Positions 5,013 to 60,741 of a stretch of DNA of 64,000 bases are shown piece by piece. Under the pieces are notes generated by a model that saw nothing but the letters and a program-made list of their open reading frames with translations, was not told the DNA's origin and ran no database searches. Source of the DNA: a virus; the IMG/VR virus record IMGVR_UViG_3300035670_000053. One strand, written 5' to 3'. The translations under genes were made by a program, and so were the position numbers. Each line of letters begins with the position of its first letter. The stretch's first letter is position 1.

Positions 5013-5623
5013 TCACTGACCGTTTCAACTTTTTGTCTTTTTTTTATAGGATCAAGTTCTTCAGCTTTTTTTCGTAGTTGTTGTGCCTGTTTAAACAATG
5101 CGTCTGCTTTTGACCTCAATTCAGTAGCTGACAACTTTGAAATATCAATAGATGTGTCTTCTGTTAATGTCATAGCAGCCTTTTCTGTAACTTTACTGGA
5201 TTCAACTACTTGTGTTTGTTTTTCTGCTACTGATTGCTTTTTACCCTCAGAAATAGCCAAATCTTCAATGCTTACACCTTTTTGTTCAGCAATTAATCTA
5301 TTTAATTCATCTAATGGTACAGATGTCTGTGGATTAGGAGTTACCAATACTTCACTAGTTGGTACTTTTTTTAGTTGATTACGATTATGTAACCATGCTA
5401 ACATATTATTTCCATCTGGAAAACTTCTTACAGATAATATGTCTGCAAATTCATTAGCTTGTTGACCGCTAGGATCTTGAATCAAATTCATTAATGCATT
5501 GTGATAAGCATCACCTAAATTAGATGTTCCTACTACTAGTGCACTATTTGGATCTCCCGGTAAAGTTCTATAAACAATAACTATTTTTGCGTTATTATTT
5601 TTCATTTTTCCAACGTGTTTCAT
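5009..5623 (-). CDS. Conserved-looking phage hypothetical protein
   Basis: 204 aa ORF tiling with neighbours; charged coiled-coil-like C-terminus. Confidence 0.7.
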   Translation of the reverse strand: MKHVGKMKNNNAKIVIVYRTLPGDPNSALVVGTSNLGDAYHNALMNLIQDPSGQQANEFADILSVRSFPDGNNMLAWLHNRNQLKKVPTSEVLVTPNPQTSVPLDELNRLIAEQKGVSIEDLAISEGKKQSVAEKQTQVVESSKVTEKAAMTLTEDTSIDISKLSATELRSKADALFKQAQQLRKKAEELDPIKKRQKVETVSE

Positions 5624-5634
5624 TGTTTATCCTA

Positions 5635-5856
5635 TTATTTTGTAGAAATTGAGCTTAAAAATGTGTTAACTCTGTCGTATACTGTTCCAACAGCCGTTAA
5701 TTCATTTGCTTGGAATGCACCTCTACGAACCGCAGTTTCAACTAATGTTTTTAGTGCTTGTAAATCGGAAACAGAAAGTTCTGTCGTATTGTTTGGTTGT
5801 TGATCTTGTGTATTTTCCATGTTTAGCCTTTCAAAAAATTTGGATATGATATACAA
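5635..5856 (-). CDS. Small hypothetical protein
   Basis: 73 aa ORF in operon orientation. Confidence 0.6.
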   Translation of the reverse strand: MYIISKFFERLNMENTQDQQPNNTTELSVSDLQALKTLVETAVRRGAFQANELTAVGTVYDRVNTFLSSISTK

Positions 5857-6104
5857 AAAACTGTTAAATCTTTTTCATCTTCGAATCCAACTACTACTTT
5901 TTCGCACAAACCATATGTATCTAATACGGTTATTCGTGTAATTGAATACCTACTATTTAAGTTATATTCAATCCAGTGTTCTAAAAATTCAGTAGTTATA
6001 TAGTTTTCTGGCATCTGAATTTTATGAAAAGTGTCGGGCATAAAATTTATTTTTCTTATACCCAACACATTCAATGGATTAATTGTTCCATTAGCCAATG
6101 ACAT
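5823..6104 (-). CDS. Small hypothetical protein with F-E-D-E-K-D-L-T-V-F motif
   Basis: 93 aa. C-terminal FEDEKDLTVF resembles the ends of the 44860-48951 array proteins. Confidence 0.55.
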   Translation of the reverse strand: MSLANGTINPLNVLGIRKINFMPDTFHKIQMPENYITTEFLEHWIEYNLNSRYSITRITVLDTYGLCEKVVVGFEDEKDLTVFCISYPNFLKG

Positions 6105-23643: not shown

Positions 23644-25890
23644 TTATACTTTTTCTAAAGCAATATCTGTTTTAGGCTGTACCAGCTTAATATAATCAAA
23701 AATTATTTCATCATTTGATGCATTAACTTCAACTGTTCCACCATTTTTAAGTTTACCAAAAAGAATTTCTTTACTTAGAGGCTTTTTAATAAATTCATCA
23801 ATAGTTCTCTGTAGTGGTCTAGCACCCATTTTACTGTCAAAACCTTTATTAATCAAGAATTTAATTGCTTCTGGTAGAATTTTGATAGATATATTTTTAT
23901 CTTTCATCAAACTATTAATTTCATCAATAAATTTCTTGACGATCTTTGTCATGGATTCTTGGTCTAATTTATTAAATTTAATTACACCATCTAATCTATT
24001 TCTAAATTCTGGTGCAAAGAAAGTATTTACTGCATTAGTGGGGTCAAAATCTCTTTCGATATTTCCAAATCCAACACTATTTTTTTCTGCATCAGCTGCA
24101 CCTAAATTACTAGTCATGATAATTATAGCATTTTTACCATCTGCCTTTTTACCATTACTTCCAGTAATTACTGCATTATCCATTAGCTGAAGCAAAACTG
24201 TAAAGACATCTGGGTGCGCTTTTTCAATTTCGTCAAAAAGAAAAATACCATTTGGATTTTCTTGTAGGCTTGTAACCAGTTGACCAGCATTATCATCAAA
24301 CCCAATATATCCCGGTGGGCTACCAATGAATTTACTGACACTATGTTTTTCTTGAAATTCACTCATATCAAATCTGACAAGCTTTGTGCCCATATTGATT
24401 GATAATTGTTTTGCAACTTCAGTTTTTCCGACTCCAGTTGGTCCTACGAACAAGAAGTTTCCTACTGGTTTATTTCCATTTTTAAGTCCAGCTTGAGCAA
24501 TAAATATTTTATCTAATAAAACATCGATGGACTTTTCTTGTCCAAAAACGCTTTGCTTCATATGCTTTTCTAAATTTTGAAGATTTTTACTCTCTTTTTC
24601 ATTTAGATTTTCAATAGGCATCTTTACCATTTTTGAAACTTCAAAAATAATTTGGTCATGGTCTACTGTTTTTTCTGATGAATTATTGAGTTTAAATCTA
24701 GCACATGCACAATCAATTAAGTCAATTGCCTTGTCTGGTAGTTTTTTATCAGTAATATATTTGATACTATATTTTACAGCATCAACAATTGCTTGATTTG
24801 TGATTTTTACACCATGATGTTTTTCATAGTACTTTTTCAACCCTTTTAGGATTTTTACAGTATCTTCTTCTGAAGGTTCATCAATTACAACTTTATGAAA
24901 ACGTCGCATTAATGCTCTATCTTTTTCAAAGAATTTCCTATACTCTTCCCATGTGGTACTTGCAATTACCTTGATATTACCTTTAGATAAGGCAGATTTT
25001 AGCATATTGCTCATATCATTGCTTCCACCATTACTAGTGCCAGCGCCGTTCATCATATGGGCTTCATCAATGAATAATATGCAATTACCTAATTTTTCAG
25101 AGGCATTAATTACTGCTTTCAGTCTTTCTTCAAAATCTCCACGATATTTAGATCCAGCTAACATTGCACTAATATCTAAATTGTAGATAGTATAGTTTTC
25201 TAAAAATTTTGGAACTGACTTATCCACGATTTTTTTAGCTAGCCCTTCAGCAATCGCAGTTTTTCCAACTCCGGGGTCACCTACTAAAATAGCATTTGAT
25301 TTAACTCTTCTAGCTAGAATCAGTTCAATATCTTCGATTTCTTTATCACGTCCAACTACTGGATCAATATTTTTATTTTTTGCTTTTTCATTTAAATTAG
25401 TACAAAATTGATTAATAATATTTTCATATTTAGTACTATTATTTGAAGATTTATTGGACTTATCTTCTTTATTCAAGAATTTTAAGAATTTTTCTTTATC
25501 AATATTTGCTTTTTTAAGCAAATATACAGCGTGAGTATTTTTTTCTGATAAAATACTTAAAAAACAGTCTATGGGCTCGATAATATGCTTACCAACTAGT
25601 AGAACATTGGTGAATGCTCTATTGATAACCTTATCTAAAACGTTTGTTTTTTTAGGTTTATTAATATCGGGGTTTATAATATCTTTTAAATCATACTCAA
25701 TATAGTGTTGAATATCATCTTTTAAAACCTCGACGTCTGTTCCAAAATCAGTTAAAAGTGAACAGAATTCTTCATTTGATACTATACTTAAAAGAAAATG
25801 TTCCAACGTAATATATTCATGCTTATTTTTTATAGCAATCATTATTGCATTTTCAAAAATTTCTTCTAAATCTTTATCAGTATCTATCAT
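23644..25890 (-). CDS. clpA: ClpA-like Hsp100 ATPase
   Basis: Clp N-domain (HEYITLEH); two Walker A motifs (GDPGVGKT, GPTGVGKT); KYRGDFEERL; GSPPGYIG; GARPL. Confidence 0.93.
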   Translation of the reverse strand: MIDTDKDLEEIFENAIMIAIKNKHEYITLEHFLLSIVSNEEFCSLLTDFGTDVEVLKDDIQHYIEYDLKDIINPDINKPKKTNVLDKVINRAFTNVLLVGKHIIEPIDCFLSILSEKNTHAVYLLKKANIDKEKFLKFLNKEDKSNKSSNNSTKYENIINQFCTNLNEKAKNKNIDPVVGRDKEIEDIELILARRVKSNAILVGDPGVGKTAIAEGLAKKIVDKSVPKFLENYTIYNLDISAMLAGSKYRGDFEERLKAVINASEKLGNCILFIDEAHMMNGAGTSNGGSNDMSNMLKSALSKGNIKVIASTTWEEYRKFFEKDRALMRRFHKVVIDEPSEEDTVKILKGLKKYYEKHHGVKITNQAIVDAVKYSIKYITDKKLPDKAIDLIDCACARFKLNNSSEKTVDHDQIIFEVSKMVKMPIENLNEKESKNLQNLEKHMKQSVFGQEKSIDVLLDKIFIAQAGLKNGNKPVGNFLFVGPTGVGKTEVAKQLSINMGTKLVRFDMSEFQEKHSVSKFIGSPPGYIGFDDNAGQLVTSLQENPNGIFLFDEIEKAHPDVFTVLLQLMDNAVITGSNGKKADGKNAIIIMTSNLGAADAEKNSVGFGNIERDFDPTNAVNTFFAPEFRNRLDGVIKFNKLDQESMTKIVKKFIDEINSLMKDKNISIKILPEAIKFLINKGFDSKMGARPLQRTIDEFIKKPLSKEILFGKLKNGGTVEVNASNDEIIFDYIKLVQPKTDIALEKV

Positions 25891-32894: not shown

Positions 32895-33233
32895 TTAATT
32901 TTCTGATCTATAGATATCAGATGGTTTACTGTCAGCGGTCATCATTATTGCATTATTATCTATCATTCGCAATTCTATAACTGAGCCGTTTGAATCCTCA
33001 TATTCTATAGTTCTAGTCCATCTACCATGTTCAACTAAAACCCATTCACCGATTTTCACATCTTGTTGATCTGGACCAATTGCCCATACTTTACCCCATC
33101 TAGGGTGGATTCCTTGATTTTTTCCATTATCGCTCGGGATATATAATCCAGAAGATGTTCTTTCGATTCCGAAATCCATATCTGAAACTAAAACTTTATC
33201 TTTTAATGGCAAAATTGTTCCTTTAACTTTCAT
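32895..33233 (-). CDS. groES: GroES-like co-chaperonin
   Basis: ILPLKDKVLV, mobile loop TSSGLYIP, AIGP, VKIGEWVL. Confidence 0.8.
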   Translation of the reverse strand: MKVKGTILPLKDKVLVSDMDFGIERTSSGLYIPSDNGKNQGIHPRWGKVWAIGPDQQDVKIGEWVLVEHGRWTRTIEYEDSNGSVIELRMIDNNAIMMTADSKPSDIYRSEN

Positions 33234-33456: not shown

Positions 33457-33975
33457 TTAATTTAAGAATTCGGATATGTCAAGCCTGTGTTTTACAGAAT
33501 CTATTTTATGTATTTCCAATAAAAATAATACATAACTTGATACACTACTGCCTCTACCAATTCCCCATGGAATTTTGTGAGTTTTCATCATATCCACTAA
33601 GTATTTAAGAAATTTTAATAAGTCTATTAAATTATATTGTTCATATAACTTTAATTCTTTGGACAGACGATTTATATTTTCTTTTGGACAAATATTATAT
33701 AAATGTTCTATAATATCAAAATCTTTATAATCCGGTGGAATAAACCAATTTTTTTGGTTAAGTTTATCAAACTCTTCTTGAGATATAGATGATTCAACAA
33801 AAAAATTTAAATCGTCAAACTCGTTGTAATTGTCTTTATTACTTTTATTAAATAACTCACTTATGAATTTGTCATCAACATATACGTCTGATAATGAATC
33901 TAAAGTTTTGGTATATATAGCTTCAAAAATTTCTTTTTCAGTTAACGATACTTGACCATATGAGTTTATCTTCAT
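33457..33975 (-). CDS. Stand-alone DNA polymerase III alpha (DnaE)-like fragment
   Basis: RL..EL..Y...NL...L..L..LV......IPWGIGRGSSVSS.V.FLL.IHKID matches the DnaE GxGRGS region. Confidence 0.7.
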   Translation of the reverse strand: MKINSYGQVSLTEKEIFEAIYTKTLDSLSDVYVDDKFISELFNKSNKDNYNEFDDLNFFVESSISQEEFDKLNQKNWFIPPDYKDFDIIEHLYNICPKENINRLSKELKLYEQYNLIDLLKFLKYLVDMMKTHKIPWGIGRGSSVSSYVLFLLEIHKIDSVKHRLDISEFLN

Positions 33976-42254: not shown

Positions 42255-43232
42255 ATTTTTAGCCTTTGCCTCTACCATTACGTCTGCCCATTCCCAATGT
42301 GTTTTGGCCCATAAGTTCATAGCAAGATTATGCATGTAATCACTATGGGCTCTTAATTTTTGTTTATTGATGCCTCTATCAATTAGCACATCACGGGAGG
42401 GAAGTATGTCGGTTGGATGATCAGAAAGAAATTCTTCTCTGGATTGGCTATAATGCATAACAGGCCGTAAACCACGCCAACTATTAATAATCATTTTGAT
42501 ACGCGGATCATTTGATGAAATATATTCTCCTTCACGACAATAATTATGATGTATATCTAAAACAATGGGCAGTAGATCGCCTAGTGTTAGGCATTCATCT
42601 AATCCCCATGAGTTTTCTTCATTTTCAATGGTGATTGAATTACGGGCTTCTGGTGAGAGTCTTTTATAGGCTCTCCTGATACCTTCTGGACCTTCTTTAC
42701 CCGAGATGTGCACGTTGATCTTGATGTCTTGAAATTGTTTACCAAACCCCATCCACCGGGCCATATCTGCATGATACTCAAACTCCTCTATACTCTTATT
42801 TACAATATCAGGATTATCACTAGCAAGAACAGTAAACTGACCTGGATGGAAAGACAGTCTAACATTACGATCACGGGCAATGCGCCCGACTTCAGCAAAA
42901 TGTCTTTCCGCATATTGTTGTACGTCAGGGAGCTTCCAAAAATACCGCCAATTAGATTCAGTGTATACAGGTAAAATATCACTTGAGAGGCGGACCATTC
43001 TAAGGTGTTGATTTAAATTTCCAACACGGGTTACAAGTTTTTTAACAGATTCGATGTTACCTTTCATCAAATCCCATAATTTTTCTTCTGCCTTAGACTT
43101 AGATTGTCTATTAAGCCATGCTACTGTAGTAGTACCAGTATTGTATTTTTTACAATCATCTGATGATTTAATTCCATCAGTTTGATTGGGGTTATCAATC
43201 CATTTGCAAGCAAATCCAATACGTTTGATCAT
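42207..43232 (-). CDS. uvsE: UV-damage endonuclease UvsE/UVDE
   Basis: RIGFACK, RLSSDILP, RLSFHPGQF, INVH, IENEE, DIHH, MVEAKAK. Confidence 0.93.
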   Translation of the reverse strand: MIKRIGFACKWIDNPNQTDGIKSSDDCKKYNTGTTTVAWLNRQSKSKAEEKLWDLMKGNIESVKKLVTRVGNLNQHLRMVRLSSDILPVYTESNWRYFWKLPDVQQYAERHFAEVGRIARDRNVRLSFHPGQFTVLASDNPDIVNKSIEEFEYHADMARWMGFGKQFQDIKINVHISGKEGPEGIRRAYKRLSPEARNSITIENEENSWGLDECLTLGDLLPIVLDIHHNYCREGEYISSNDPRIKMIINSWRGLRPVMHYSQSREEFLSDHPTDILPSRDVLIDRGINKQKLRAHSDYMHNLAMNLWAKTHWEWADVMVEAKAKNLASFKLFEYWESLKM

Positions 43233-43248
43233 TTAAAATCCTTAGGGT

Positions 43249-43512
43249 TTATGAATACTTTAGAATAAACCAAGTAAGTTTTTTTCCTTCACTAAAAGAA
43301 AAAGTTACATGTGATTCAGTTCCACTCTTGAGGCCATACATATAATAAGACGAAGATGGAGTATAAGCGAAACTGAAATCTTTGTCAACTACTAAACCTG
43401 TAAGTTTCAATTCATTAACTATATCTAGCATTTTAGATGCAGACATAGCTTTTAAAATTGATTTATGAGGAAATTTGTCTAGCATACATATTCTTTTGAA
43501 GGTAAAAACCAT
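43249..43512 (-). CDS. Small protein ending FILKYS (array-family outlier)
   Basis: C-terminal FSEGKKLTWFILKYS*. Confidence 0.6.
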   Translation of the reverse strand: MVFTFKRICMLDKFPHKSILKAMSASKMLDIVNELKLTGLVVDKDFSFAYTPSSSYYMYGLKSGTESHVTFSFSEGKKLTWFILKYS

Positions 43513-43871
43513 TCAAGTGTTTCTTGTGGACTATATTTTTCTATTAATTTAAGAAAAAAATCTGCATCTTTTTTATTAATAAATTTAATAAACATATTAA
43601 CCATATTATCTGATGATTTTTCATCTATAATATAATCCCATGCTCTTGTATTGAAAACACCTGCCCGATAAATTTTATTATATTCTCGAAATGCTGATAT
43701 TTTAGTAGTTTCTGCATAATATATATTAAGCCATAATGTGCCTACTATCATTCTAGCACATGTTTGTGTCATTGCAACACCATTCCAATATGTTATATGA
43801 GCATCATGTTTTTTTATATACATATTAAATGGGACAGGACTAATAAAACTCCAAGCCGCTGCATCATGCAT
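43479..43871 (-). CDS. Hypothetical protein
   Basis: 130 aa ORF tiling with neighbours. Confidence 0.55.
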   Translation of the reverse strand: MHDAAAWSFISPVPFNMYIKKHDAHITYWNGVAMTQTCARMIVGTLWLNIYYAETTKISAFREYNKIYRAGVFNTRAWDYIIDEKSSDNMVNMFIKFINKKDADFFLKLIEKYSPQETLEWFLPSKEYVC

Positions 43872-44442
43872 TACCGTAATCCTCTTCTGTTAATTTAGTA
43901 TAATCCCATATTGTTTTAGGATTAGCAATGATGTTTTTTATTAGTTCATCGTCTGGTTGATATCCATATGACCAGTATTTAAATAATCTTTTAATACTAT
44001 TTTCATTGATTTTTGTCATTCTTAAATATTTGTTTTTTAAATCATTTATGAAATTATCAGAATAATACCATGTGTCACCATCAGTTGCAATTTGACAAAC
44101 AGTTATGTCAAAATTATCTAATAAATTTAACACATTTTTTTCATCGCTTTCATCAATGTTTGTACGATATGGTTTTTTAATAATTTGAACTTTTATATTT
44201 GAAATTAAGTAGGTAGATGCATATACTGTATCAAATTTTGGATGATAACCAATATTCATTCTAAATTTATTCATGGATTCTACAGTTGGAAACCAAATAT
44301 CTATATCATGCTCTTCTACTGCGTAATCCTGAAACCATCTTAATGCTGCTCCTCCTGCAACAATTGCATTATAATTTTCTAAATTAAGACTTCTTATTAA
44401 TTCTCGATCGGTCGAATGAATTGTTAATAAATTTATTGACAT
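43864..44442 (-). CDS. Nucleotidyltransferase (Pol beta/CCA head-domain-like)
   Basis: VAGGAALR, HDIDIWF, FDITVCQ. Confidence 0.75.
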   Translation of the reverse strand: MSINLLTIHSTDRELIRSLNLENYNAIVAGGAALRWFQDYAVEEHDIDIWFPTVESMNKFRMNIGYHPKFDTVYASTYLISNIKVQIIKKPYRTNIDESDEKNVLNLLDNFDITVCQIATDGDTWYYSDNFINDLKNKYLRMTKINENSIKRLFKYWSYGYQPDDELIKNIIANPKTIWDYTKLTEEDYGNA

Positions 44443-44449
44443 GATATTT

Positions 44450-44863
44450 TTATTTTGCTAAATTTAGCAATGTTTTATAATGTTCATATGCTTTTCGTAC
44501 AGATTCGTTACTGTCTCTAATACGTTTTTCGTTTAAATTCACAAAATATAGTTCTCTTAATTGCCCATAGTCATGTATGATCATCTCAACTGAGTTTAGT
44601 CCTGTGAAATTCTTTAGATTTTCGAGATCAACATGTTCGTCTGCCAACTGTTCAAACTCCACTATTGGCATGGTAATCTCCACTGCTTCAACACTGTCAA
44701 TCTTTGTAATGGCGTAGGTAGACAAATAATCTTCGTAAGGATTGTAGGTGTTAGGAACTAATGATGGATTGTTATGCACGTACATCCTCTTATCATATTT
44801 GACGGAACCGTAATAACGATTTAAAAATGATTTAACTGATTTTGATTTTTCAATATGTTTCAT
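44450..44863 (-). CDS. Hypothetical protein
   Basis: 137 aa; starts inside the last array junction (ATGA). Confidence 0.6.
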   Translation of the reverse strand: MKHIEKSKSVKSFLNRYYGSVKYDKRMYVHNNPSLVPNTYNPYEDYLSTYAITKIDSVEAVEITMPIVEFEQLADEHVDLENLKNFTGLNSVEMIIHDYGQLRELYFVNLNEKRIRDSNESVRKAYEHYKTLLNLAK

Positions 44864-45066
44864 GAATACCTCAAAATAAACATTGTATATTTTTTTTCAT
44901 CAACTACTTCAATACGCCCGCCAATAGCGGATGACAATTGGATTCCGTATTCTTTAACCATATGTTCCTTAAGCGCATGAATATTAAGTAACAAACTAAT
45001 AGGAGCATTTTCTTCCCATTTATTGATAGCGCGCCAGACCATATTATCATCAATAAGATTTGTCAT
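44860..45066 (-). CDS. Array unit ending FILRYS
   Basis: Start moved to the ATG in the junction. Confidence 0.7.
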   Translation of the reverse strand: MTNLIDDNMVWRAINKWEENAPISLLLNIHALKEHMVKEYGIQLSSAIGGRIEVVDEKKYTMFILRYS

Positions 45067-45461
45067 GACCACCTCAACAAAAACAATGTGTAATCTTTTG
45101 GATTTTTACAGGCGAAGAAAATATAATCTCCTCCACCAAGTTCATCTATTTCCCATCCATTTGATGTACTTGATGCACGATGGAAATCAAATCTAAATTT
45201 ATCTGTACAGTTTTCCTTACACCATTGACTAAGCACATATATTCCGTCTATTGCTACATCCCAGTAATAAACATTGTGGCCACGATTTTCAAAACAGTAA
45301 ACATATGGATACCCACGATAAAAATCTTTTACTCTACTAGCAGGACGATTGATATCTAGATCGTACATGTGATCGTATTGTTCTCTAGTTTCGCAACCAT
45401 GTGCTGCTAGAAAACGACGTTCTCGCCATTCAAGATATCGTTTTTGTATTAGTTTTAACAT
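45063..45461 (-). CDS. Array unit ending FLLRWS
   Basis: TAATG overlap with the upstream unit. Confidence 0.75.
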   Translation of the reverse strand: MLKLIQKRYLEWRERRFLAAHGCETREQYDHMYDLDINRPASRVKDFYRGYPYVYCFENRGHNVYYWDVAIDGIYVLSQWCKENCTDKFRFDFHRASSTSNGWEIDELGGGDYIFFACKNPKDYTLFLLRWS

Positions 45462-45658
45462 TATAACCACTTCAAGACAAATAGTGAATATCCAGGCCCA
45501 GATGGTATTACACTAAATTCATAGCCATGAATGCTAGAAGATTCGTGTAAGTGTTTTACTTTATTTTCTTTCATCCAATTCATGATTTCTAAAAACTCAG
45601 AAAAATCTTTAACAAAATAATTATTTCTAGGATAACCCCTAAGTTGATAAATTTTCAT
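45461..45658 (-). CDS. Array unit ending FVLKWL
   Basis: ATGA overlap at the junction. Confidence 0.7.
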   Translation of the reverse strand: MKIYQLRGYPRNNYFVKDFSEFLEIMNWMKENKVKHLHESSSIHGYEFSVIPSGPGYSLFVLKWL

Positions 45659-45858
45659 GACCACCTCAAACATACCATCGTATATAATTTTTCATCAGAT
45701 ATTTTAACTTCAAAGTGCTGATATATGATATTAACTCTCCAATATGCGCCGCTGATCTCTACTATACCTATACTTAAACAAGGGTGTCCTAGAGACTCAA
45801 ACCATGATATCAATTCGTTAAAAGTAGTTTTGTTGAACTGTATTAATAATTTTTTCAT
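45655..45858 (-). CDS. Array unit ending VCLRWS
   Basis: ATGA overlap at the junction. Confidence 0.7.
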   Translation of the reverse strand: MKKLLIQFNKTTFNELISWFESLGHPCLSIGIVEISGAYWRVNIIYQHFEVKISDEKLYTMVCLRWS

Positions 45859-46094
45859 GACCATTTCAATAATAGAATAGTTAGTTGTTCTTTATTAATC
45901 ATAGCATCATAACTGTTTTCTAGGTCATCATTACTGGCATAGATCATATCGTCATTTTCGCCGAATGTATCACGTAACCATTGTTTCATCTCTCTGCCAT
46001 GCTTTCCCCAAAATCCACACTCATATCTACCATGATAGTATCGTGATTTCTTTATTTGAACACCTTTTAATGAAATTACGTTGTCTGTTTTCAT
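45855..46094 (-). CDS. Array unit ending LLLKWS
   Basis: ATGA overlap at the junction. Confidence 0.7.
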   Translation of the reverse strand: MKTDNVISLKGVQIKKSRYYHGRYECGFWGKHGREMKQWLRDTFGENDDMIYASNDDLENSYDAMINKEQLTILLLKWS

Positions 46095-46345
46095 GACCAC
46101 TTCAGCAAAAACAAAGTAGCATCTTGATCGTTAACAAATCCAAACCAATCATAACCAGTACTAACTCCTAATGCATCACCTAGTGACTTAGGTTCGTGCT
46201 TAATGATTTCACAACCTTGTTCGGCTAACCATGACCGATAACCTTCGTACCACGCATCAAAATTGTTTGGTAAGTTAGGCATGATATTTTCTTTGAAGTA
46301 AAATCTAGTATTGTAATGTAGTGGATTGGTATCTAGGAATATCAT
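46091..46345 (-). CDS. Array unit ending FLLKWS
   Basis: ATGA overlap at the junction. Confidence 0.7.
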   Translation of the reverse strand: MIFLDTNPLHYNTRFYFKENIMPNLPNNFDAWYEGYRSWLAEQGCEIIKHEPKSLGDALGVSTGYDWFGFVNDQDATLFLLKWS

Positions 46346-46614
46346 GACCATCTCAGTAAAAATAACATTTTATCTTTTTCATGTTTGAAATAGATAGTGG
46401 ACCAATTCTAAATCCAGTCATTTCCAAAGTTTTTTTCACACCATACTAACATTTCAGGTCCCAATTCGGGATATGAAACACTTGGGAAATTCTTTTTAAT
46501 ATACTCTGTAGCTTCAAAAGCACCAGTATAACGAAGATTATTTACACCAAAATTTAGAATTTTTTTGTGTAGGGACGAGTAAATTTTTTCCACTTCTATT
46601 GTTTTTACGATCAT
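46342..46614 (-). pseudogene. Array unit with in-frame TAG (46408-46410), ending FLLRWS
   Basis: Reading through TAG gives ...FGNDWI*NWSTIYFKHEKDKMLFLLRWS*. Confidence 0.75.
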
Positions 46615-46862
46615 GACCACCTCAACGCAAACAATAAGGCATCATGATCATCCTCAAATTGAATGAACTTTTCAGGGAGATAATCTGGACTATGATAGTA
46701 ATTGCCCTGACAATTTTCCTTCAACCATTCACTTATTAAAAGATCCTTATGAGAATACAGATAAAAACCAGTTAATTCTGATTCGTCAGTATACTTTACA
46801 AGATGAAGAACCGGCGTCTTGATTTCTGGAAAGCCAGGCACTGGTTTATAAGTTACTGTCAT
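46611..46862 (-). CDS. Array unit ending FALRWS
   Basis: ATGA overlap at the junction. Confidence 0.7.
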   Translation of the reverse strand: MTVTYKPVPGFPEIKTPVLHLVKYTDESELTGFYLYSHKDLLISEWLKENCQGNYYHSPDYLPEKFIQFEDDHDALLFALRWS

Positions 46863-47038
46863 GACCACCTCAACAAAAACATTATAGCATCACAATCTTC
46901 TAATTCAAAATAAATGTCGTCATGACCAATCTGCCAATCTGCCCAGTAGGTTCGATCTACCCAATTTTTACAATTAGCATAGATCCAATCGCATTGTTCA
47001 TACCATGTAATTGGACATTTTATTGTTACTGTAGTCAT
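46859..47038 (-). CDS. Array unit ending FLLRWS
   Basis: ATGA overlap at the junction. Confidence 0.7.
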   Translation of the reverse strand: MTTVTIKCPITWYEQCDWIYANCKNWVDRTYWADWQIGHDDIYFELEDCDAIMFLLRWS

Positions 47039-47355
47039 GAGTTTTTCAACAACCAAATTATCTTTTCATGCGGATCGTCAAATTCTAAACTAAATCCAAA
47101 AACCATTCTATCTGTTAGATACTTTTCTACAACACGATATGGTCCAGGATACAGAGCCTGCATGACTTCATTTACATGTTTCATGTCCTTCATAGTTATT
47201 TCTTGGGTGTTGTAAGTACTAATCGAATTGTTATATTGTAGTTCTAACTCTTGTAGATGATCCTGCCAAGTCCATTGTTTTGGATAATATATTCGGATAG
47301 AAGGTGCCACAAGGATAGGCTTATGTTTTTTGAGTTTTGGTACTGTAATAGTCAT
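47035..47355 (-). CDS. Array unit ending WLLKNS
   Basis: ATGA overlap; degenerate junction. Confidence 0.7.
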   Translation of the reverse strand: MTITVPKLKKHKPILVAPSIRIYYPKQWTWQDHLQELELQYNNSISTYNTQEITMKDMKHVNEVMQALYPGPYRVVEKYLTDRMVFGFSLEFDDPHEKIIWLLKNS

Positions 47356-47422
47356 GGCCACCTCAGCACAAATAACATATAGTAATCATATATGGCCAAA
47401 GTTGTTTTTTAAGTGATCTCAT
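47352..47422 (-). pseudogene. 71 nt remnant array unit
   Basis: ATG..MRSLKKQLWPY in one frame; YDYYMLFVLRWP* plus junction in another frame. Confidence 0.6.
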
Positions 47423-47790
47423 ATCACCATACTTTTTATAATTTCATATTGACGAATTGCTTCTTCTACTCTTTTCCAAGCAATTTCTAATGCTGGATTA
47501 TTTTTTTGTGTTTCATGAGTTTGTCTGAATGCCTTATTAAATACATCATTATTAACCCAAGCATATGGGTTTGCGTCTGTCCAGTAATAAACAATAGCGA
47601 TATCGGGAAACGTGGCCCGAATTTGATTTTCGTATGTATACCACTCATTAGTTTTTTTATGATAATAAAAATAATTATAATCATGATCACCGTCAGCCTT
47701 TCCACCAACGCCCCAACCTCTATAACCGAGATAGTATCCAGATGTATCAGGTTGTTTATCTTTAGTATTATACCAAATTGAAGTTTTCAT
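47419..47790 (-). CDS. Hypothetical protein inside the array, lacking the terminal motif
   Basis: 123 aa; MKTSIWYNTKDKQPD...GYYL start. Confidence 0.65.
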   Translation of the reverse strand: MKTSIWYNTKDKQPDTSGYYLGYRGWGVGGKADGDHDYNYFYYHKKTNEWYTYENQIRATFPDIAIVYYWTDANPYAWVNNDVFNKAFRQTHETQKNNPALEIAWKRVEEAIRQYEIIKSMVI

Positions 47791-47791
47791 T

Positions 47792-47986
47792 TTATGCCCA
47801 TTTTAACATGAATAATATATAATCTTTTTTATCATAAAAATAAAAACGATAGTACCACTCACCGTTTTCGTGTTTAAATGCGTCATTTGTAATATAACTT
47901 GAGCAATGTTTTATTGTCCATTCTAGTATTTTTTGTGTTTCTACGAAAGGATGTTTATCATATCTAAAACAAAAAGTATAACTCAT
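47792..47986 (-). CDS. Array unit ending FMLKWA
   Basis: ATGA overlap at the junction. Confidence 0.7.
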   Translation of the reverse strand: MSYTFCFRYDKHPFVETQKILEWTIKHCSSYITNDAFKHENGEWYYRFYFYDKKDYILFMLKWA

Positions 47987-48147
47987 GTCCATCTCAATAT
48001 GGCAAATAATTTATCTTTTTCATTGCCAATATACCAGGTATCAAACTTACTATAACTATTAGTTCCCATATATTCACAAACAATATTTTGATTCTGACAC
48101 CATTCCCAGAACATGTCTCTATACGCAACATTGATTTTGAACATCAT
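47983..48147 (-). CDS. Array unit ending AILRWT (54 aa, not in ORF track)
   Basis: Hand translation MMFKINVAYRDMFWEWCQNQNIVCEYMG...EKDKLFAILRWT*. Confidence 0.7.
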   Translation of the reverse strand: MMFKINVAYRDMFWEWCQNQNIVCEYMGTNSYSKFDTWYIGNEKDKLFAILRWT

Positions 48148-48464
48148 GACCACCTCAAAATAAACAAAGTCAGATCCTTTGGGTTCTTGAAGGCAAAAGT
48201 AGTACTGCCAAATATGTTATGCACCACCCACAAATTGTCACCCATTCCTTTCCATGTTAGAGGAGTACCGTAAGTCCAACCACCGGGTCCTATGTTGTTA
48301 TAGCACCATTCTTCCATATCTTTCTGTTCGTGGTAGCGATCTTTGTCGAATGTAATCTCCATTTTGTGCCAGCCTTCTGTTATTGTGTCAAATATTACGG
48401 CTCTGTCAATCTCTTCACAAATTATATTTGTAGCATCAATAGTGATTTTATCAATCGGGTTCAT
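48144..48464 (-). CDS. Array unit ending FILRWS
   Basis: ATGA overlap at the junction. Confidence 0.72.
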   Translation of the reverse strand: MNPIDKITIDATNIICEEIDRAVIFDTITEGWHKMEITFDKDRYHEQKDMEEWCYNNIGPGGWTYGTPLTWKGMGDNLWVVHNIFGSTTFAFKNPKDLTLFILRWS

Positions 48465-48736
48465 AACCACCTCAAAATAAACAACGTTGCGTGTTTTTCA
48501 GATTCAAACCAAACGGTATCTATTCTTGACCAAAAATAGTGTGTTTTCCCGAATTGTTCCTTACACCATTCGTTTATGTCAAGCCAATTATATTCTATAT
48601 TGACGACAGATACATTTACACGATAATAGCCTGCGTCGGCAAATCTAGAGTCCCAGTTATGGGCGAGACTACGAGGTCGAGTATTATCCCAATCTCCCCA
48701 TGCTTGAACAAAATCACCTATACAGTCTTTTTTCAT
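48461..48736 (-). CDS. Array unit ending FILRWL
   Basis: ATGA overlap at the junction. Confidence 0.72.
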   Translation of the reverse strand: MKKDCIGDFVQAWGDWDNTRPRSLAHNWDSRFADAGYYRVNVSVVNIEYNWLDINEWCKEQFGKTHYFWSRIDTVWFESEKHATLFILRWL

Positions 48737-48951
48737 GACCACCTCAACATGTAAAGCATAGCCACACGATCATCTGTAAATTTTAGATAGTTGATAAACT
48801 GATGATACTCAGCTTCATATACTTTTACGACAGACCATTGTTGGCCACCATACTTATTATTAAGATAATAAAGTATCGGACCAACATGATGCTCTAACCA
48901 ACATTCTTGTTGATAAGTTAGTGCTTGCTTTAACTTTATTTCAGTAGTCAT
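48733..48951 (-). CDS. First array unit, ending YMLRWS
   Basis: Directly downstream of a consensus promoter. Confidence 0.72.
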   Translation of the reverse strand: MTTEIKLKQALTYQQECWLEHHVGPILYYLNNKYGGQQWSVVKVYEAEYHQFINYLKFTDDRVAMLYMLRWS

Positions 48952-48977
48952 GCGTGAAATTTTTACAGTGTACTACC

Positions 48978-49006
48978 ATTTTAACACTGCAACTATTTCT
49001 TGTCAA
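48978..49006 (-). promoter_or_regulatory. Near-consensus sigma70 promoter heading the small-ORF array
   Basis: TTGACA-17 nt-TAAAAT; a GTCAAC..GTTGAC inverted repeat overlaps the -35 box. Confidence 0.8.
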
Positions 49007-49211
49007 CCATATAGTTGACTGAAAAAATCAATAATACAGCATTAGTACAATAAAAATATAATTAATGATATAATTACTATACTAATAAAAATAAGTCTTA
49101 TAAAGTTAATTCCAAGTTCATCAATAAATGACTTTTTATCAATATTAAAAAATAGCAGTAAAAAATTTACTGCTATAATATCTAATACCCTAATCATTGA
49201 TTGATAAAATA

Positions 49212-49388
49212 TTATGTATTTTTAGGGTCAGCTTTAGTGATAGACCATGAACCATCGCCATTATCGGAGAAATTAAGAGTATCACCTTCATTCCAACCTA
49301 CCTGATCTAGTAATTCAGGGGGGAATTCTAACAATATGTCTCCAGTTTCTGGATCTTCTTTAGTTTCTAAAATCCATTTAGTTTCCAT
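49212..49388 (-). CDS. AbrB/MazE-like small protein (58 aa, not in ORF track)
   Basis: METKWILETKEDPETGDILLEFPPELLDQVGWNEGDTLNFSDNGDGSWSITK; FP.ELL...GW..GD.L swapped-hairpin pattern; GAGG RBS. Confidence 0.6.
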   Translation of the reverse strand: METKWILETKEDPETGDILLEFPPELLDQVGWNEGDTLNFSDNGDGSWSITKADPKNT

Positions 49389-49539
49389 GATGTTCCTCTT
49401 TTTTTAACTCGACTATTCCATATTGCTTATACATCCAACTAATGAAGTTTTCAATATGTAAATCTGGTCTTACTTTTTTTGAATAAACTTCATAAGCTAA
49501 TGATACTTTATTTAACATATCTTTATCTAAGTAAAACAT

Positions 49540-50121
49540 TTATGACCTTTTTTCAATAACTTTATCTGCTAATCCGTAATTAATTGAAGCTTGTGCGTCC
49601 ATGATATTATCACGGTCCATATCTTTAGTCAACTGACTAAAAGATTTTCCCGTATTTTTTACATAGATATTAGTTAAATCTTTTTTCATTCGTAGAATTT
49701 CGTTAACCTGAATTTCCATGTCGGATGCTTGACCACTTGCTCCACCTAAAGGCTGATGAATTAAATGTCGTGAATGTGGCAACATAAATCTTTTTCCTTT
49801 TTTACCGGATGAAGCAAGTAGTGATCCCATACTAGCAGCTTGTCCAATAACATATGTTGCAATATCTGGTTTTACAAAATCCATTACATCTAAAATTCCC
49901 AATCCTGAAACTACCGATCCTCCTGGACTATTAATATACAAATTAATATCTTTATTAGAATCCATACTTTCAAGATGAAGAATTTGTGCAATAACTAAGT
50001 TTGCACTATGATCATTAACTGGGCCATTCAGAAAAACGATTCTTTCATTCAATAAACGGCTGTAAATGTCAAATGCTCTTTCTCCCTGACTTGTCTTTTC
50101 AACTACCATTGGTACTAACAT
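49540..50121 (-). CDS. clpP: ClpP protease subunit
   Basis: [23 protein letters not shown] (catalytic Ser), HQP (His), MDRD, YGLAD. Confidence 0.95.
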
Positions 50122-50130
50122 ATTTTTCCT

Positions 50131-50478
50131 TTAAATTATAACTGCGGTTTTAGTTTGTCGATCACTATAAATTTTGTGACCACGTTCTCTAATTAAATCA
50201 GCAGTAAGTTGTGGGTGTTCTTGCCATTGATTTTTCCAAAAATTTTCATCAAGACTTTCATCACAATCTACTGCATAAATTTCATAGAATCTTTGATGAT
50301 TAAATCTTGCCCTTATAATTAAGTTACGAATAATACTATTCAAAGGATTAGGTATAGATTCTTCTCCTTTAAGTAGTTTAATAAGGTTTTCTTTATCTTG
50401 ATTTTCATATATAGAAATAGGAATGATTGCTTCGATTCCGTTGTAATCCCAACTAAAAATAAATGCATTTTTTGTCAT
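50131..50478 (-). CDS. Hypothetical protein
   Basis: 115 aa ORF. Confidence 0.6.
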   Translation of the reverse strand: MTKNAFIFSWDYNGIEAIIPISIYENQDKENLIKLLKGEESIPNPLNSIIRNLIIRARFNHQRFYEIYAVDCDESLDENFWKNQWQEHPQLTADLIRERGHKIYSDRQTKTAVII

Positions 50479-50480
50479 GT

Positions 50481-50798
50481 TTAATTTGAATTCTTGATTT
50501 TGGTGAGTAAACTATTTTTTTCTTCTTTATATATTTTCCAATTGTCAATAACAGTGTCATATATAGTTATTTTTAAAAATACGCCGACCATAATCATAAT
50601 CCCGGTTGTCACGGTGCTTATTGATTGAATCATTAACCCAGTTATTGTGACACTAACAGACAAAATACATAAAAAATAAAAAGGATCTACTTTTTTAGCA
50701 AACCAAACAAGAAAATGCAGAAGTTCTTTCATATGATCTTTCAAAAATTTATTAATGAGTTTCGTTAAGTGTAATCCATTCAGACCATTTTGGTACAT
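50481..50798 (-). CDS. Two-TM membrane protein
   Basis: Two hydrophobic segments. Confidence 0.5.
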   Translation of the reverse strand: MYQNGLNGLHLTKLINKFLKDHMKELLHFLVWFAKKVDPFYFLCILSVSVTITGLMIQSISTVTTGIMIMVGVFLKITIYDTVIDNWKIYKEEKNSLLTKIKNSN

Positions 50799-50963: not shown

Positions 50964-51236
50964 TTAAGACCATTTTAAAATAAACATAGTCATATTTTTT
51001 TCTTCTTTAAAGAAAAATACACTTTTATGCTCGTACCACACGGATGCTGATGAACCGAAATTTTTATTACACCATTTTTTAGCTTTCTCAATGTCTAGCT
51101 GTTTATCTTCGGTATTTTCAATTTTAACCCAATGATATTCACCGAGCCAACTTTTGGATTTGCCGGTTTTCATAAAGTTGGACTTTTCTTCAAGCTTGAT
51201 ATTATCGAACTTTGACAAATCAATATTAATGTTCAT
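50964..51236 (-). CDS. Array-family outlier ending FILKWS
   Basis: W..KNFG...WY....FFFKEEKNMTMFILKWS*; has its own promoter. Confidence 0.7.
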   Translation of the reverse strand: MNINIDLSKFDNIKLEEKSNFMKTGKSKSWLGEYHWVKIENTEDKQLDIEKAKKWCNKNFGSSASVWYEHKSVFFFKEEKNMTMFILKWS

Positions 51237-52565: not shown

Positions 52566-52826
52566 TTATCTATTTTCACTATCAATTGAAGATATTAAAT
52601 CACCATATTTTAATAAAAATAGTGTTTTTTTATGTTCATTATAGAAATCTAACCAAGTATACGTATAGTCATATATATTGGTTCTCTGAGTAAAACCTAG
52701 TTTTTCTCTTGAATTTGCCCGTATCAGATAATAACTTGGTGGATATTCTTTTTTAATTTTTTCAAGAATTTTTATCCAATCTTTCTCTTTTACTTTTATC
52801 GATTTCATTCTTTGACTGGAATCCAT
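52566..52826 (-). CDS. Small protein with extended array-like C-terminus (LFLLKYG)
   Basis: DFYNEHKKTLFLLKY motif. Confidence 0.55.
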   Translation of the reverse strand: MDSSQRMKSIKVKEKDWIKILEKIKKEYPPSYYLIRANSREKLGFTQRTNIYDYTYTWLDFYNEHKKTLFLLKYGDLISSIDSENR

Positions 52827-56061: not shown

Positions 56062-56286
56062 TTATCCTGTTAATTTATGTCCCCATTTTAAATTAAAAAT
56101 AGTTAAAAACTTTGATAATTCGTTTTCATTTTCAAATCGAAAGGTATTTGAGTTTATTAATTTAAAATTAAAATTGTTATTAACTGTGTTTTCAATCCAA
56201 TTCCAAATATTACTATCTGTACAAAAAACACTTATTTCTAATTCATTACTTTTTCTAATAAAGAGTCTATTTCCAAAAATATTCAT
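56062..56286 (-). CDS. Small protein with array-like C-terminus (FENENE...FNLKW)
   Basis: 74 aa ORF. Confidence 0.55.
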   Translation of the reverse strand: MNIFGNRLFIRKSNELEISVFCTDSNIWNWIENTVNNNFNFKLINSNTFRFENENELSKFLTIFNLKWGHKLTG

Positions 56287-58421: not shown

Positions 58422-58778
58422 TCATGTGAGTTTTTTTGTCAATGATAATTTTTTATTGTTTTCAATTTCATTGGCTGCTTCTTCTAACAAGTCAGCAATA
58501 CGATCGGGTTCACCCTCTTCTACACTTTTTCTACCTGGGATTTGTCTACGAATCTCTGCACGTTTACGTAAACGATAAATCAGTGGTTGGCTTTCGGTTG
58601 GAAGTCGTTGTAAACAGTTTACACCATCACATTCAGTTGAGCTTAAACATTTGATACATTTGACTCCCGGACATTCTTCTTTGGTATTATACACGGTTTC
58701 TACCGTATTACAAACCTTACAATAGGTTAGATCGGGCATACCAAATGCGGATTCGTCATTGCGCCATTGATGTTTCAT
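58422..58778 (-). CDS. Cys-rich small protein
   Basis: CxxC...C...CxxC...C...C, then a helical LRKRAEIRRQI module. Confidence 0.6.
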   Translation of the reverse strand: MKHQWRNDESAFGMPDLTYCKVCNTVETVYNTKEECPGVKCIKCLSSTECDGVNCLQRLPTESQPLIYRLRKRAEIRRQIPGRKSVEEGEPDRIADLLEEAANEIENNKKLSLTKKLT

Positions 58779-59176
58779 ACCAACTCCGATTCATTAATTC
58801 GTTCAAAAGCAACCACTGCTGGAAGTAATAGAACTGCCGCTGGGGTTTCACTGAGAATAGCCAAAACACGTAGTTTATCACTGGGTATATCTAGGTATTT
58901 ACTGGCGTCATCATATGCGATTAGTGCTGCTGTCGCATCCATAGTCGCAAGCTTAGCCGCACCCCAAGCTGTATTCCAAGCCGCAACCTTAGACGCATCC
59001 AAAGCCGCAATTCTAGACGCATCCAAAGCCGCACTATGTGCCGCATCCAAAGCCGCACCATGAGCCGCACTCCAAGCCGTATCCCTAGCTGCATCCCAAA
59101 TTTCAGGATGTGACTTTACAGACTCAAGTACCCGATCAATATGATAGGCATTTGGTAAGTGGCTCCAGACACTCAT
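58775..59176 (-). CDS. Ala/Trp-rich paralogue, copy 5
   Basis: W S.LPNA.HIDRV ... IAYDDASKYL ... AFERI.E family. Confidence 0.8.
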   Translation of the reverse strand: MSVWSHLPNAYHIDRVLESVKSHPEIWDAARDTAWSAAHGAALDAAHSAALDASRIAALDASKVAAWNTAWGAAKLATMDATAALIAYDDASKYLDIPSDKLRVLAILSETPAAVLLLPAVVAFERINESELV

Positions 59177-59574
59177 ATAGCATTCTCCAATTTATTAATT
59201 CGTTCAAACGCAATCACTGCTGGCAGCAATAGAATTGCTGCCGGGTTTTCACTGATAATGGCCAAAACACGTAGTTTATCACTGGGTATATCTAGGTATT
59301 TACTGGCATCATCAAATGCAATTAGTGCTGCTGTCGCATCCATAGTCGCAAGCGTAGCCGCAACCCAAGCTACATTCCAAGCCGTAACCCAAGACGCATT
59401 CAAAGCCGTAACCCTAGACGCATTCAAAGCCGCAAACCTAGACGCATCCAAAGCCGCACCATGAGCCGCAAGTCTAGTATTCAAAGCCGCATCCCAAATT
59501 TCAGGATGCGATTTCGCTGACTCAAGTACCCTATCAATATGACAGGCATTTGGTAAATGACTCCATGCGTTCAT
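59173..59574 (-). CDS. Ala/Trp-rich paralogue, copy 4
   Basis: Same family; ATGA overlap. Confidence 0.8.
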   Translation of the reverse strand: MNAWSHLPNACHIDRVLESAKSHPEIWDAALNTRLAAHGAALDASRFAALNASRVTALNASWVTAWNVAWVAATLATMDATAALIAFDDASKYLDIPSDKLRVLAIISENPAAILLLPAVIAFERINKLENAI

Positions 59575-59960
59575 ACACACTCTAATTCACGAATTCGTTC
59601 AAAAGCAACCACTGCTGGAATCAATAGAACTGCTGCTGGGTCTTCACTAAGTATAGCCCAAACACGTAGTTGTTCGACAGGCATGTCTAGATATTTACTG
59701 GAATCATCATATACGATTAGGGCTGCTATCGGACCCCAAGCCGCACCCCGAGCCGCATTCCGTGCCGCAAGCCAAATCGCATCCCACGCCGCACTCGGAG
59801 CCGTATTCCGTGCCGCAAGCCAAATCGCATCCCACACCGCACTCGGAGCCGTATTCCTAGCCACAAGCCAAGCCGCATCCCAAATTTCAGGATGTGATTT
59901 CACTGACTTAATTACCCGATCAATATGATGGGCATTAGGCAAATTACTCCAGGCACTCAT
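59571..59960 (-). CDS. Ala/Trp-rich paralogue, copy 3
   Basis: Same family; internal 16 aa (48 bp) repeat. Confidence 0.8.
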   Translation of the reverse strand: MSAWSNLPNAHHIDRVIKSVKSHPEIWDAAWLVARNTAPSAVWDAIWLAARNTAPSAAWDAIWLAARNAARGAAWGPIAALIVYDDSSKYLDMPVEQLRVWAILSEDPAAVLLIPAVVAFERIRELECV

Positions 59961-60355
59961 ACACACTCCAATTCATTAATTCGTTCAAAAGCAATTACTG
60001 CTGGAATCAATAGAATTGCTGCTGGTATTTCACTGAGAATAGCCCAGATACGTAGATGATCACTAGGCATGTCTAGATATTTACTGGCGTCGTCATATGC
60101 GATTAGGGCGATTATCGCATTCCACGCCGCATCCCGAGCCGCAAGCCAATCCGCACCCCGAGCCGTAAGCCTAGCACCCAAAGCCGCATCCCAAGCCTCA
60201 TTATGATCTGTATCCCTAGCCGCATTTGTGGCCGCATTTGTAGCCGCATCCCAAGCCTTATCCCAAGTCGCACCCCAAATTTCAGGATGCGATTTCGCTG
60301 ACTCAAGTACCCGATCAATATGATGGGCATTTGGTAAATGACTCCATGCATTCAT
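59957..60355 (-). CDS. Ala/Trp-rich paralogue, copy 2
   Basis: Same family; ATGA overlap. Confidence 0.8.
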   Translation of the reverse strand: MNAWSHLPNAHHIDRVLESAKSHPEIWGATWDKAWDAATNAATNAARDTDHNEAWDAALGARLTARGADWLAARDAAWNAIIALIAYDDASKYLDMPSDHLRIWAILSEIPAAILLIPAVIAFERINELECV

Positions 60356-60741
60356 ACACACTCCAATTCACGAATTCGTTCAAAAGCAACCACTGCTGGT
60401 AGTAATAAAACCGATGCCGGGTCTTCACTAAGAATAGCCCAAACACGTAGTTGATCGCTGGGTATGTATAGATATTTGCTAGCGTCATCATATGCGATTA
60501 GGGCTGTTATCGCACCCCAAGCCGCATTCCAAGCCGCATACCTAGCCGCACCCAAAGCCGCACCCAAAGCCGCATACCTAGCCGCATACCTATCCGAAAG
60601 CCGAGCCGCACCCAAAGCCGCATACCTAGACGAAAGCCTAGCCTCATCCCAAATCGCATCCCAAATTTCAGTATGCGACTTTACAGACTCAAGTACCCTA
60701 TCAATATGACAGGCATTAGGCAAACGACTCCATGCGTTCAT
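60352..60741 (-). CDS. Ala/Trp-rich paralogue, copy 1
   Basis: Same family; ATGA overlap with the RNA ligase stop. Confidence 0.8.
   Translation of the reverse strand: MNAWSRLPNACHIDRVLESVKSHTEIWDAIWDEARLSSRYAALGAARLSDRYAARYAALGAALGAARYAAWNAAWGAITALIAYDDASKYLYIPSDQLRVWAILSEDPASVLLLPAVVAFERIRELECV

Follow-up and report, generated by a model that had tools for sequence, protein, structure and literature searches.

The 64,000-nt stretch analysed here (the window) derives from the virus record IMGVR_UViG_3300035670_000053, a 75.9-kb IMG/VR contig from a subsurface metagenome that was judged 21% complete. From 48951 to 44860 its minus strand carries a tandem array of small genes whose reading frames run on without gaps. 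The array consists of 16 units (u01–u05, u07–u16 and a dead remnant at 47418–47352) with sizes of 54–132 aa, and is accompanied by two genes outside the family, namely x06 inside the array and x17, which starts from the last joint between units (Table 1). All 16 reading frames terminate in (F/L/I/V/M/C)-x-L-(R/K)-(W/Y/N)-x-stop, and the joints follow each other at distances of 161–440 nt, the 440-nt interval being made up of the unrelated gene x06 and the dead remnant. Only the last ~32 nt of the latter survive (47383–47352, ...MLFVLRWP-stop), including the Shine-Dalgarno (SD) sequence and the ATG for u07, while a retained start of the remnant was unsupported by alignment. A sequence-only reading of the window had described this region as a promoter-headed row of about 16 small genes connected by one conserved junction with six exact copies, and copies, spacing and endings were all recovered. 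The 15-mer at the joint, TTGAGGTGGTCATGA, occurs in six exact copies and at 13 sites with ≤2 mismatches, compared with 0.09 sites expected in shuffled sequences; all of these lie within 44860–48747 and none elsewhere in the 75.9-kb record. The long shared stretches reported between individual tails are present as well: those at 45063 and 46859 have ~25 nt in common, those at 48144 and 48461 have 24 nt with one mismatch.

In frame, the joint encodes Leu-(Arg/Lys)-Trp-(Ser/Ala/Leu/Thr/Pro)-stop, and the stop codon overlaps the next ATG (ATGA at 14 of the 16 joints and a TAATG-type overlap at one). The segment G-AGG-TGG provides a GAGG(T) SD sequence, with GAGG located 5–6 nt upstream of the ATG in nine joints. 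As the sequence-only reading had proposed, the joint thus holds the stop, the SD and the next ATG, so that each unit supplies ribosome site and start for the gene that follows. Stop/start overlap and an SD within the upstream gene are the marks of a translationally coupled operon. An SD in the 3′ end of the upstream gene combined with ATGA was also found in 8–9 of 13 other overlapping gene pairs of the phage, usually as GGAG, and is thus a general habit of this virus. The codons of the joint are strongly biased. Leucine is encoded by TTG in 12 of 16 cases (14% background, p = 6e-8), and 15 of the 16 Leu codons end in G. Arginine is AGG in 9 of 11 joints, compared with 8% genome-wide and 1/38 in unit bodies (p = 7e-9), confirming the AGG preference that had been taken as a sign of selection on the nucleotide sequence. 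Furthermore, the last sense codon of the units is always NNA, and TGA is the stop in 14/16 units versus 27% elsewhere. The palindrome TCATGA pointed out earlier does exist, but no special role remained for it, as it arises as a by-product of NNA-TGA overlapping ATG.

A solitary paralogue at 50964–51236 served as an internal control: it retains the protein ending MFILKWS but encodes its last residues and stop as TTA AAA TGG TCT TAA, with intergenic DNA behind the gene. We extended the comparison to overlapped and non-overlapped family members at loci chosen independently of the DNA motif. Overlapped members used AGG in 43/63 and TTG in 48/63 cases, non-overlapped members in only 6/26 and 5/26, respectively (Fisher p = 1.4e-4 for AGG). 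Since uncoupled paralogues use other codons, the bias tracks the overlapping downstream start, on which joint codon choice depends; selection at the DNA level would then be due to translational coupling. Each conserved base of the 15-mer can be accounted for by the protein sequence, the SD or the stop/start overlap, and separate selection for a recombination site therefore need not be assumed. A second row of tandem paralogues lies at 58775–60741 (minus strand), with the near-identical joint ...GAATTGGAGTGTGTATGA at 60355, 59960 and 59574, again with embedded SD and ATGA overlap. The same architecture has therefore arisen twice in one genome.

The head of the array is marked by the sequence TTGACA-17-TAAAAT (49006–48978), which had been proposed as its promoter and indeed proved to be the best promoter-like match of the region. 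Sites of this sigma70-like type are enriched on the gene strand (11 versus 3.3 in shuffled sequences), and a TTGACA promoter-like site also directly precedes the array in the relatives L012, L146 and L008. In sequence terms, the locus thus presents a single strong sigma70-like site followed by overlapping, promoterless genes. The type of promoter suggests early expression.

Table 1 Features of the array and its surroundings (positions refer to the window)
Feature	Position	Strand	Remarks
Terminator-like hairpin, ends upstream transcription unit	49152..49176	-	11-bp perfect stem, 3-nt loop, T-run
Sigma70-like promoter at array head, TTGACA-17-TAAAAT with TG-extended -10	48978..49006	-	11/12 match
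u01, 72 aa, first unit	48733..48951	-	Orthologue also first in L012 and L146
u02, 91 aa	48461..48736	-	Family HMM match
u03, 106 aa	48144..48464	-	Family HMM match
u04, 54 aa, minimal unit	47983..48147	-	Family HMM match
u05, 64 aa, ends LKWA-TAA, next start not overlapping	47792..47986	-	Family HMM match
x06, 123 aa, unrelated gene within array	47419..47790	-	Orthologues in L008/L009 arrays, 48–55% aa
Dead unit remnant	47352..47418	-	Intact 63-aa unit at same place in L145
u07, 106 aa, ends LLKNS	47035..47355	-	Only tail family-like; membership uncertain
u08, 59 aa	46859..47038	-	Family HMM match; 92–93% nt identity in L012 and L146
u09, 83 aa, unit modelled	46611..46862	-	Family HMM match
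u10, 90 codons, in-frame TAG at 46408–46410	46342..46614	-	Public record TGG, L145 TAG
u11, 84 aa	46091..46345	-	Family HMM match
u12, 79 aa	45855..46094	-	Exactly missing from related contig, run X6
u13, 67 aa	45655..45858	-	Family HMM match
u14, 65 aa, TAATG-type overlap	45461..45658	-	Missing from contigs of runs X5 and X6
u15, 132 aa	45063..45461	-	Family HMM match
u16, 68 aa, ends LRYS	44860..45066	-	Only tail region scores to family profile
x17, 137 aa, non-family, start from last joint	44450..44863	-	Reading frame
Solitary family member, ends MFILKWS, no overlapping start	50964..51236	-	Internal control for codon choice

Across all 64,000 nt, window and public record (G000) disagree at a single base, position 46409, where u10 has a TGG (Trp) codon in the record and the in-frame TAG in the window. 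The phage hardly ever uses TAG to end a gene (1/102 open reading frames, ORFs). Recoding or readthrough of TAG was ruled out, as no other gene contains a mid-gene in-frame TAG and the record has TGG. Because the independent Joint Genome Institute (JGI) contig L145 carries TAG too, it is a natural nonsense variant, and both alleles occur in nature.

To characterize the encoded proteins, we used a family hidden Markov model (HMM) built from A2. At E < 1e-3, 14 of the 16 array units matched, and so did four dispersed genes of the window, all on the minus strand (50964–51236, 56062–56286, 52566–52826 and 5823–6104), none of which carries the DNA joint. The equivalents of u01–u06 as well as u08–u15 matched the profile at the W-C-x-x-N helix, a β-hairpin and the C-terminal helix. 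For u16 the match was confined to the tail, and for u07 to its last 18 residues (hhalign E 0.07; weak and not significant). The tail of u07 matches the one that precedes u08 in L012. Apart from their ends, the units show only about 20–35% aa identity among themselves. The internal motifs W-C-x-x-N-x-G and F-x-F-x-x-E-x-D-A are true columns of the family alignment, in line with the earlier suggestion of one small divergent fold. An AlphaFold (AF2) model of u09, computed with 104 homologues, gave a small α/β domain with a predicted local distance difference test score (pLDDT) of 87. Here, D-A-x-L-F-x-L-R-W-S forms the C-terminal helix and W-C-x-E-N the first helix. The model therefore presents the protein ending as a structural element rather than an appendage and supports the view that the units share one fold. 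With ratios of non-synonymous to synonymous substitution rates of 0.14–0.65, compared with 0.03 in two neighbouring housekeeping genes, the units are real genes subject to weaker or shifting constraint. Their small size, expansion, fast evolution and likely early promoter led us to guess at a role in host interaction or anti-defence.

When 1.84 billion representative proteins were searched with the profile, at least 670 clusters (50% identity) were obtained at E ≤ 1e-3, nearly all of them 50–140 aa long and ending in L-R/K-W-x. More than 20 further viral contigs contained arrays of 5–16 units, one of them being a 333-kb, 92%-complete genome with two arrays. In the exact 15-mer scan of viral contigs, single-copy loci were about as frequent as expected by chance (a rough estimate), so that only multi-copy loci were used. 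Megablast of the array returned no match, nor did tblastn searches of GenBank phages with u03 and P0060. Foldseek against PDB gave nothing at E ≤ 0.001; BFVD returned only weak matches to uncharacterised phage proteins and the ESM Atlas only viral hypothetical clusters. By contrast, the profile search of cultured phages, which was the only route by which their members were detected, revealed 31 matches in Sinorhizobium phage Phosso and four in Agrobacterium phage Atu_ph07, all annotated as hypothetical proteins, and no family match in GAP32. Since the family-B DNA polymerase (PolB) of the record is 45–48% identical to those of Phosso and Atu_ph07, the virus belongs to the T4-related jumbo phages of the Atu_ph07/Rak2 type. 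In Phosso (PV764938.1, e.g., 95355–100308) the members are arranged in several loose clusters; some adjoin a DnaE-like fragment and GroES, genes also present in the window (33457–33975 and 32895–33233). The tails in Phosso (47% GC) read LFKLTWS or LFKLAWA in different codons and have no common DNA joint, and the uniform joint is therefore a feature of the window's clade.

The gain, loss and reordering of units among related phages, with breakpoints at the joint, had been set as the test of the idea that units are exchanged there. We compared the window with the metagenome contigs L145 (JGI), L012 (Logan), L146 (a GenBank whole-genome shotgun contig) and the more distant L008–L011; relatives were present in wastewater and freshwater. 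Instead of an identical order of units, we found rearrangement at joints. The closest relative, L145, matches the window with 99.7% identity over 47383–45583. Beyond 47383, on the upstream side, L145 contains an intact 63-aa unit, whereas the window contains x06 followed by the last ~32 nt of that unit. The pair of x06 and remnant thus represents a very recent replacement that kept the tail feeding u07. Orthologues of x06 (119–125 aa; L008:6878–7255 and L009:7588–7947) likewise reside inside arrays; the unit that follows them, a remnant in the window, is intact there (52–58 aa). L012 contains a frameshifted, dead unit (5421–5600), whose intact counterpart of 60 aa occurs in the 95%-identical contig L146 (4659–4841); here again a unit has decayed while its tail was kept.

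Both L012 and L146 deviate from the order u01 to u16 of the window. L012 reads u01′, u16′, u08′, u09′, A, B, u11′, C, the frameshifted unit and u15′; L146 reads u01′, n1, u16′, u08′, n2, n3, u14′, u09′, A′, C′, n4 and u15′. Shared units are closely related to those of the window, with nucleotide identities of 92–94% for u08–u09, 85–88% for u15 and 83% for u11 (L012 only). Between the window and L012, identity of 83–93% extended up to the ATGA and collapsed right after it; at the other boundaries, identity set in 13–31 nt upstream of the ATG. L012 and L146, which are 92–98% identical to each other, differ by three indels of exactly one, three and two units. Each of these is edged by joints, with 14–25 nt aligned twice, and such a duplication is what exchange between repeats would be expected to leave behind. 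With a mean unit length of about 250 nt, all of the ~20 listed endpoints of homology blocks were located no farther than 31 nt upstream or 4 nt downstream of a joint stop codon. In Logan contigs of separate studies, precisely u12, u14 or u16 is missing; the absence of u12 is documented by a joint connecting 45869 to 46106 with a flank of 188 nt, and most Logan joints with flanks of 21–27 nt were set aside because the joint sequence alone supports them. In more distant arrays (u09 55–60% aa identity), orthologues of u02, u05, u09, u13, u15 and x06 occur in other orders, and L008, L009, L010 and L011 all contain orthologous units in altered order. The locus thus behaves as a row of tandem paralogues, that is, copies of one family whose number and order vary and which show repeat homology at the breakpoints.

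The divergence of the units is mosaic. Between the window and L012, synonymous divergence amounts to 0.09 for u09, 0.22 for u08, 0.38 for u11 and 0.96 for u16 and is saturated for u01; the corresponding values for L012 versus L146 extend from 0 (u08, A) to 0.21 (u16). Adjacent units must therefore have different histories. Moreover, the u08–u09 pair with its 92–94% DNA identity resides in contigs whose array-head and downstream genes show only 36–48% protein identity. In L012 (1290–3607) and L146 (143–2460) the array is preceded by genes for UDP-glucose dehydrogenase and a 238-aa protein, whereas in the window it follows ClpP; this implies a move of the array or a rearrangement of the genomes at that place.

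In our view these observations are probably explained by a tandem, translationally coupled gene family in which the joint acts as a homology patch for homologous or microhomology-mediated recombination of whole units. A jumbo phage of the Atu_ph07/Rak2 type would carry a tandemly expanded, fast-evolving family of small α/β proteins, and a host-type (sigma70-like) promoter probably drives the row as a single operon. Every cistron would be coupled to the next by tail codons that spell GAGG(T) and by a stop that overlaps the start (ATGA), and by virtue of this arrangement all units would share their final 15–30 nt. This short stretch could pair during unequal crossing-over within one genome or during exchange between co-infecting relatives, with the outcome that whole units would be inserted, deleted, reordered or swapped while a working ribosome site remains for each. 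Recombination at the joint is most readily understood as following from the shared sequence.

Several points weigh against this reading. The boundary of each gene coincides with the joint, so that selection after random recombination would also yield breakpoints there. Recombination is known from the comparison of contigs and not from direct products such as circles or hybrid reads. All relatives compared are contigs from metagenomes, in part short ones from Logan, and many Logan joints rest on just 21–27 aligned bases, which amounts to the joint itself. AGG is missing from 5 of 16 joints, which have AAA, AAG or AGA instead, so that a strong SD is not obligatory. The units have no sequence matches in Pfam, PHROG, PADLOC or PDB, and the fold matches are generic (VIA-align Z ≤ 6 to ACT, RRM, KH-like and ferredoxin-like sandwiches). 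Finally, a search of RNA runs for the array locus found none that contains it.

The first of these points leads to an alternative in which the joint is only a conserved C-terminus combined with translational coupling: illegitimate recombination would strike anywhere, and selection would purge the products in which genes are broken. This would agree with the finding that protein, SD and ATGA overlap explain every conserved base of the 15-mer, and with the family members of Phosso, which keep the protein tail without a conserved DNA joint. Likewise, the x06/remnant replacement has a right breakpoint that precedes the stop by ~32 nt and a left end that coincides with no family joint. We nevertheless regard this alternative as unlikely. 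All three indels between L012 and L146 have 14–25 nt of duplicated joint at their edges, which argues for homology-driven exchange, although short of proof. In addition, the ~20 endpoints are all near joints although dead remnants are tolerated, and since such remnants persist, out-of-joint products would not all be purged at once.

Far less probable is an integron-like system, the label attached to the array by the sequence-only reading, in which a dedicated site-specific recombinase would move promoterless cassettes and the joint would be its att site. One promoter does head a row of promoterless units, and units do come and go whole. However, the search for a recombinase, which had been advised together with that label, returned no match to PF00589 or PF00239 (tyrosine and serine recombinases) in the 75.9-kb record, which itself is only ~21% complete, so that absence from the genome is unproven. 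PF00589 was also unmatched in three array-bearing relatives, namely the 92%-complete 333-kb genome with two arrays and two other records, as well as in Phosso. A scan of 44800–49200 for attC-like inverted repeats recovered none that recur at the joints, only the trivial TCATGA palindrome, and the joints are coding sequence with graded similarity and no fixed core site. A RecA/UvsX-like gene is present in larger array-bearing relatives. The integron label was thus abandoned in favour of the homology patch, and turnover of the array likely proceeds by homologous, not site-specific, recombination. That short-read assemblers mis-joined units at the repeated joint is hardly credible either. It is true that the relatives were assembled from metagenomes, that the joint is repeated and that several Logan joints have very short flanks. 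However, none of the exact stretches in common (up to ~25 nt) is as long as the contig k-mers (31 in Logan), the alternative orders include units foreign to the window (A, B, C, n1–n4) and are therefore not mis-joins of the same genome, and the L012-type order recurred in independent sources (two Logan runs, JGI and a GenBank whole-genome shotgun contig).

Among described processes, PeSL-mediated modular shuffling and tandem-family accordions driven by homologous recombination come closest to the array. In the PeSL cassettes of T4-type phages, a conserved element comprising promoter, stem-loop, SD and start is placed between small genes and acts as a point of homologous exchange; whole ORFs are inserted, deleted or replaced between close relatives, and mini-circles have been shown (Arbiol et al. 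2010, PMC2839356; Comeau et al. 2014, PMC4122927). The array resembles this system in that repeated expression signals (upstream stop, SD, downstream start) separate small non-essential genes of a T4-related phage, and in that indels and replacements between close relatives are bounded by the repeated motif. PeSLs, however, are intergenic and equip each gene with its own sigma70 promoter and stem-loop terminator, whereas the array has no intergenic space and one promoter per row, a hairpin followed by a promoter being found only at its head. Moreover, its repeat is coding sequence and the flanked genes are paralogues, while PeSL-flanked genes are unrelated ORFans. Large DNA viruses provide a second parallel: the amplification of poxvirus K3L and the multigene families (MGF) of African swine fever virus (ASFV) are known as tandem multigene families or 'genomic accordions'. 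Here, too, tandem paralogues of a presumed host-interaction protein expand, contract and diverge rapidly through unequal recombination, and copy number varies among close relatives. In these eukaryotic viruses, however, homology spans whole recent copies, while the units of the array are alike only at the 15–30 nt joint and are, in addition, translationally coupled. With integrons the array shares a single upstream promoter and promoterless units that are gained or lost whole, a functional analogy at most, since the units overlap and are paralogous and no integrase, attC or attI was found. The copies in Phosso and Atu_ph07 belong to the same family by profile, have the same C-terminal helix (A-x-LF-K-L-x-W-S/A) and come from a related lineage; in Phosso, however, they occur in loose clusters between conserved genes and mostly have T, A or S in place of R before Trp.

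A more far-reaching interpretation, which we put forward tentatively and as more doubtful than the homology patch itself, is that the joint serves as a portable adaptor through which genes are both expressed and recombined. Single small genes might in this way pass horizontally between divergent jumbo phages with no dedicated recombinase involved, and unrelated ORFs such as x06 and perhaps u07 might be captured into an expressed row. This idea is based on the 92–94% DNA identity of u08–u09 amid flanks with 36–48% protein identity, and on synonymous divergence that varies more than ten-fold between adjacent units.

Giant phages contain hundreds of small genes of unknown function, and the turnover of this repertoire is poorly understood. 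The locus offers a sequence-level case in which one and the same stretch is the end of a protein, a ribosome site, a start codon and the place of gene exchange; with the joint at the exchange place, every rearranged product would therefore be expressed at once. The analysis has further delineated a large, as yet unnamed family of proteins, and its members in the cultivable phages Phosso and Atu_ph07 make both function and shuffling testable in the laboratory.

Regarding the surroundings of the array, no tRNA genes were detected in the 64-kb window and no Rfam match within 43000–50500. The phage encodes ClpP-like (49540–50121) and ClpA/B-like (23644–25890) proteins, the ClpP gene being located directly upstream of the terminator–promoter pair of the array.

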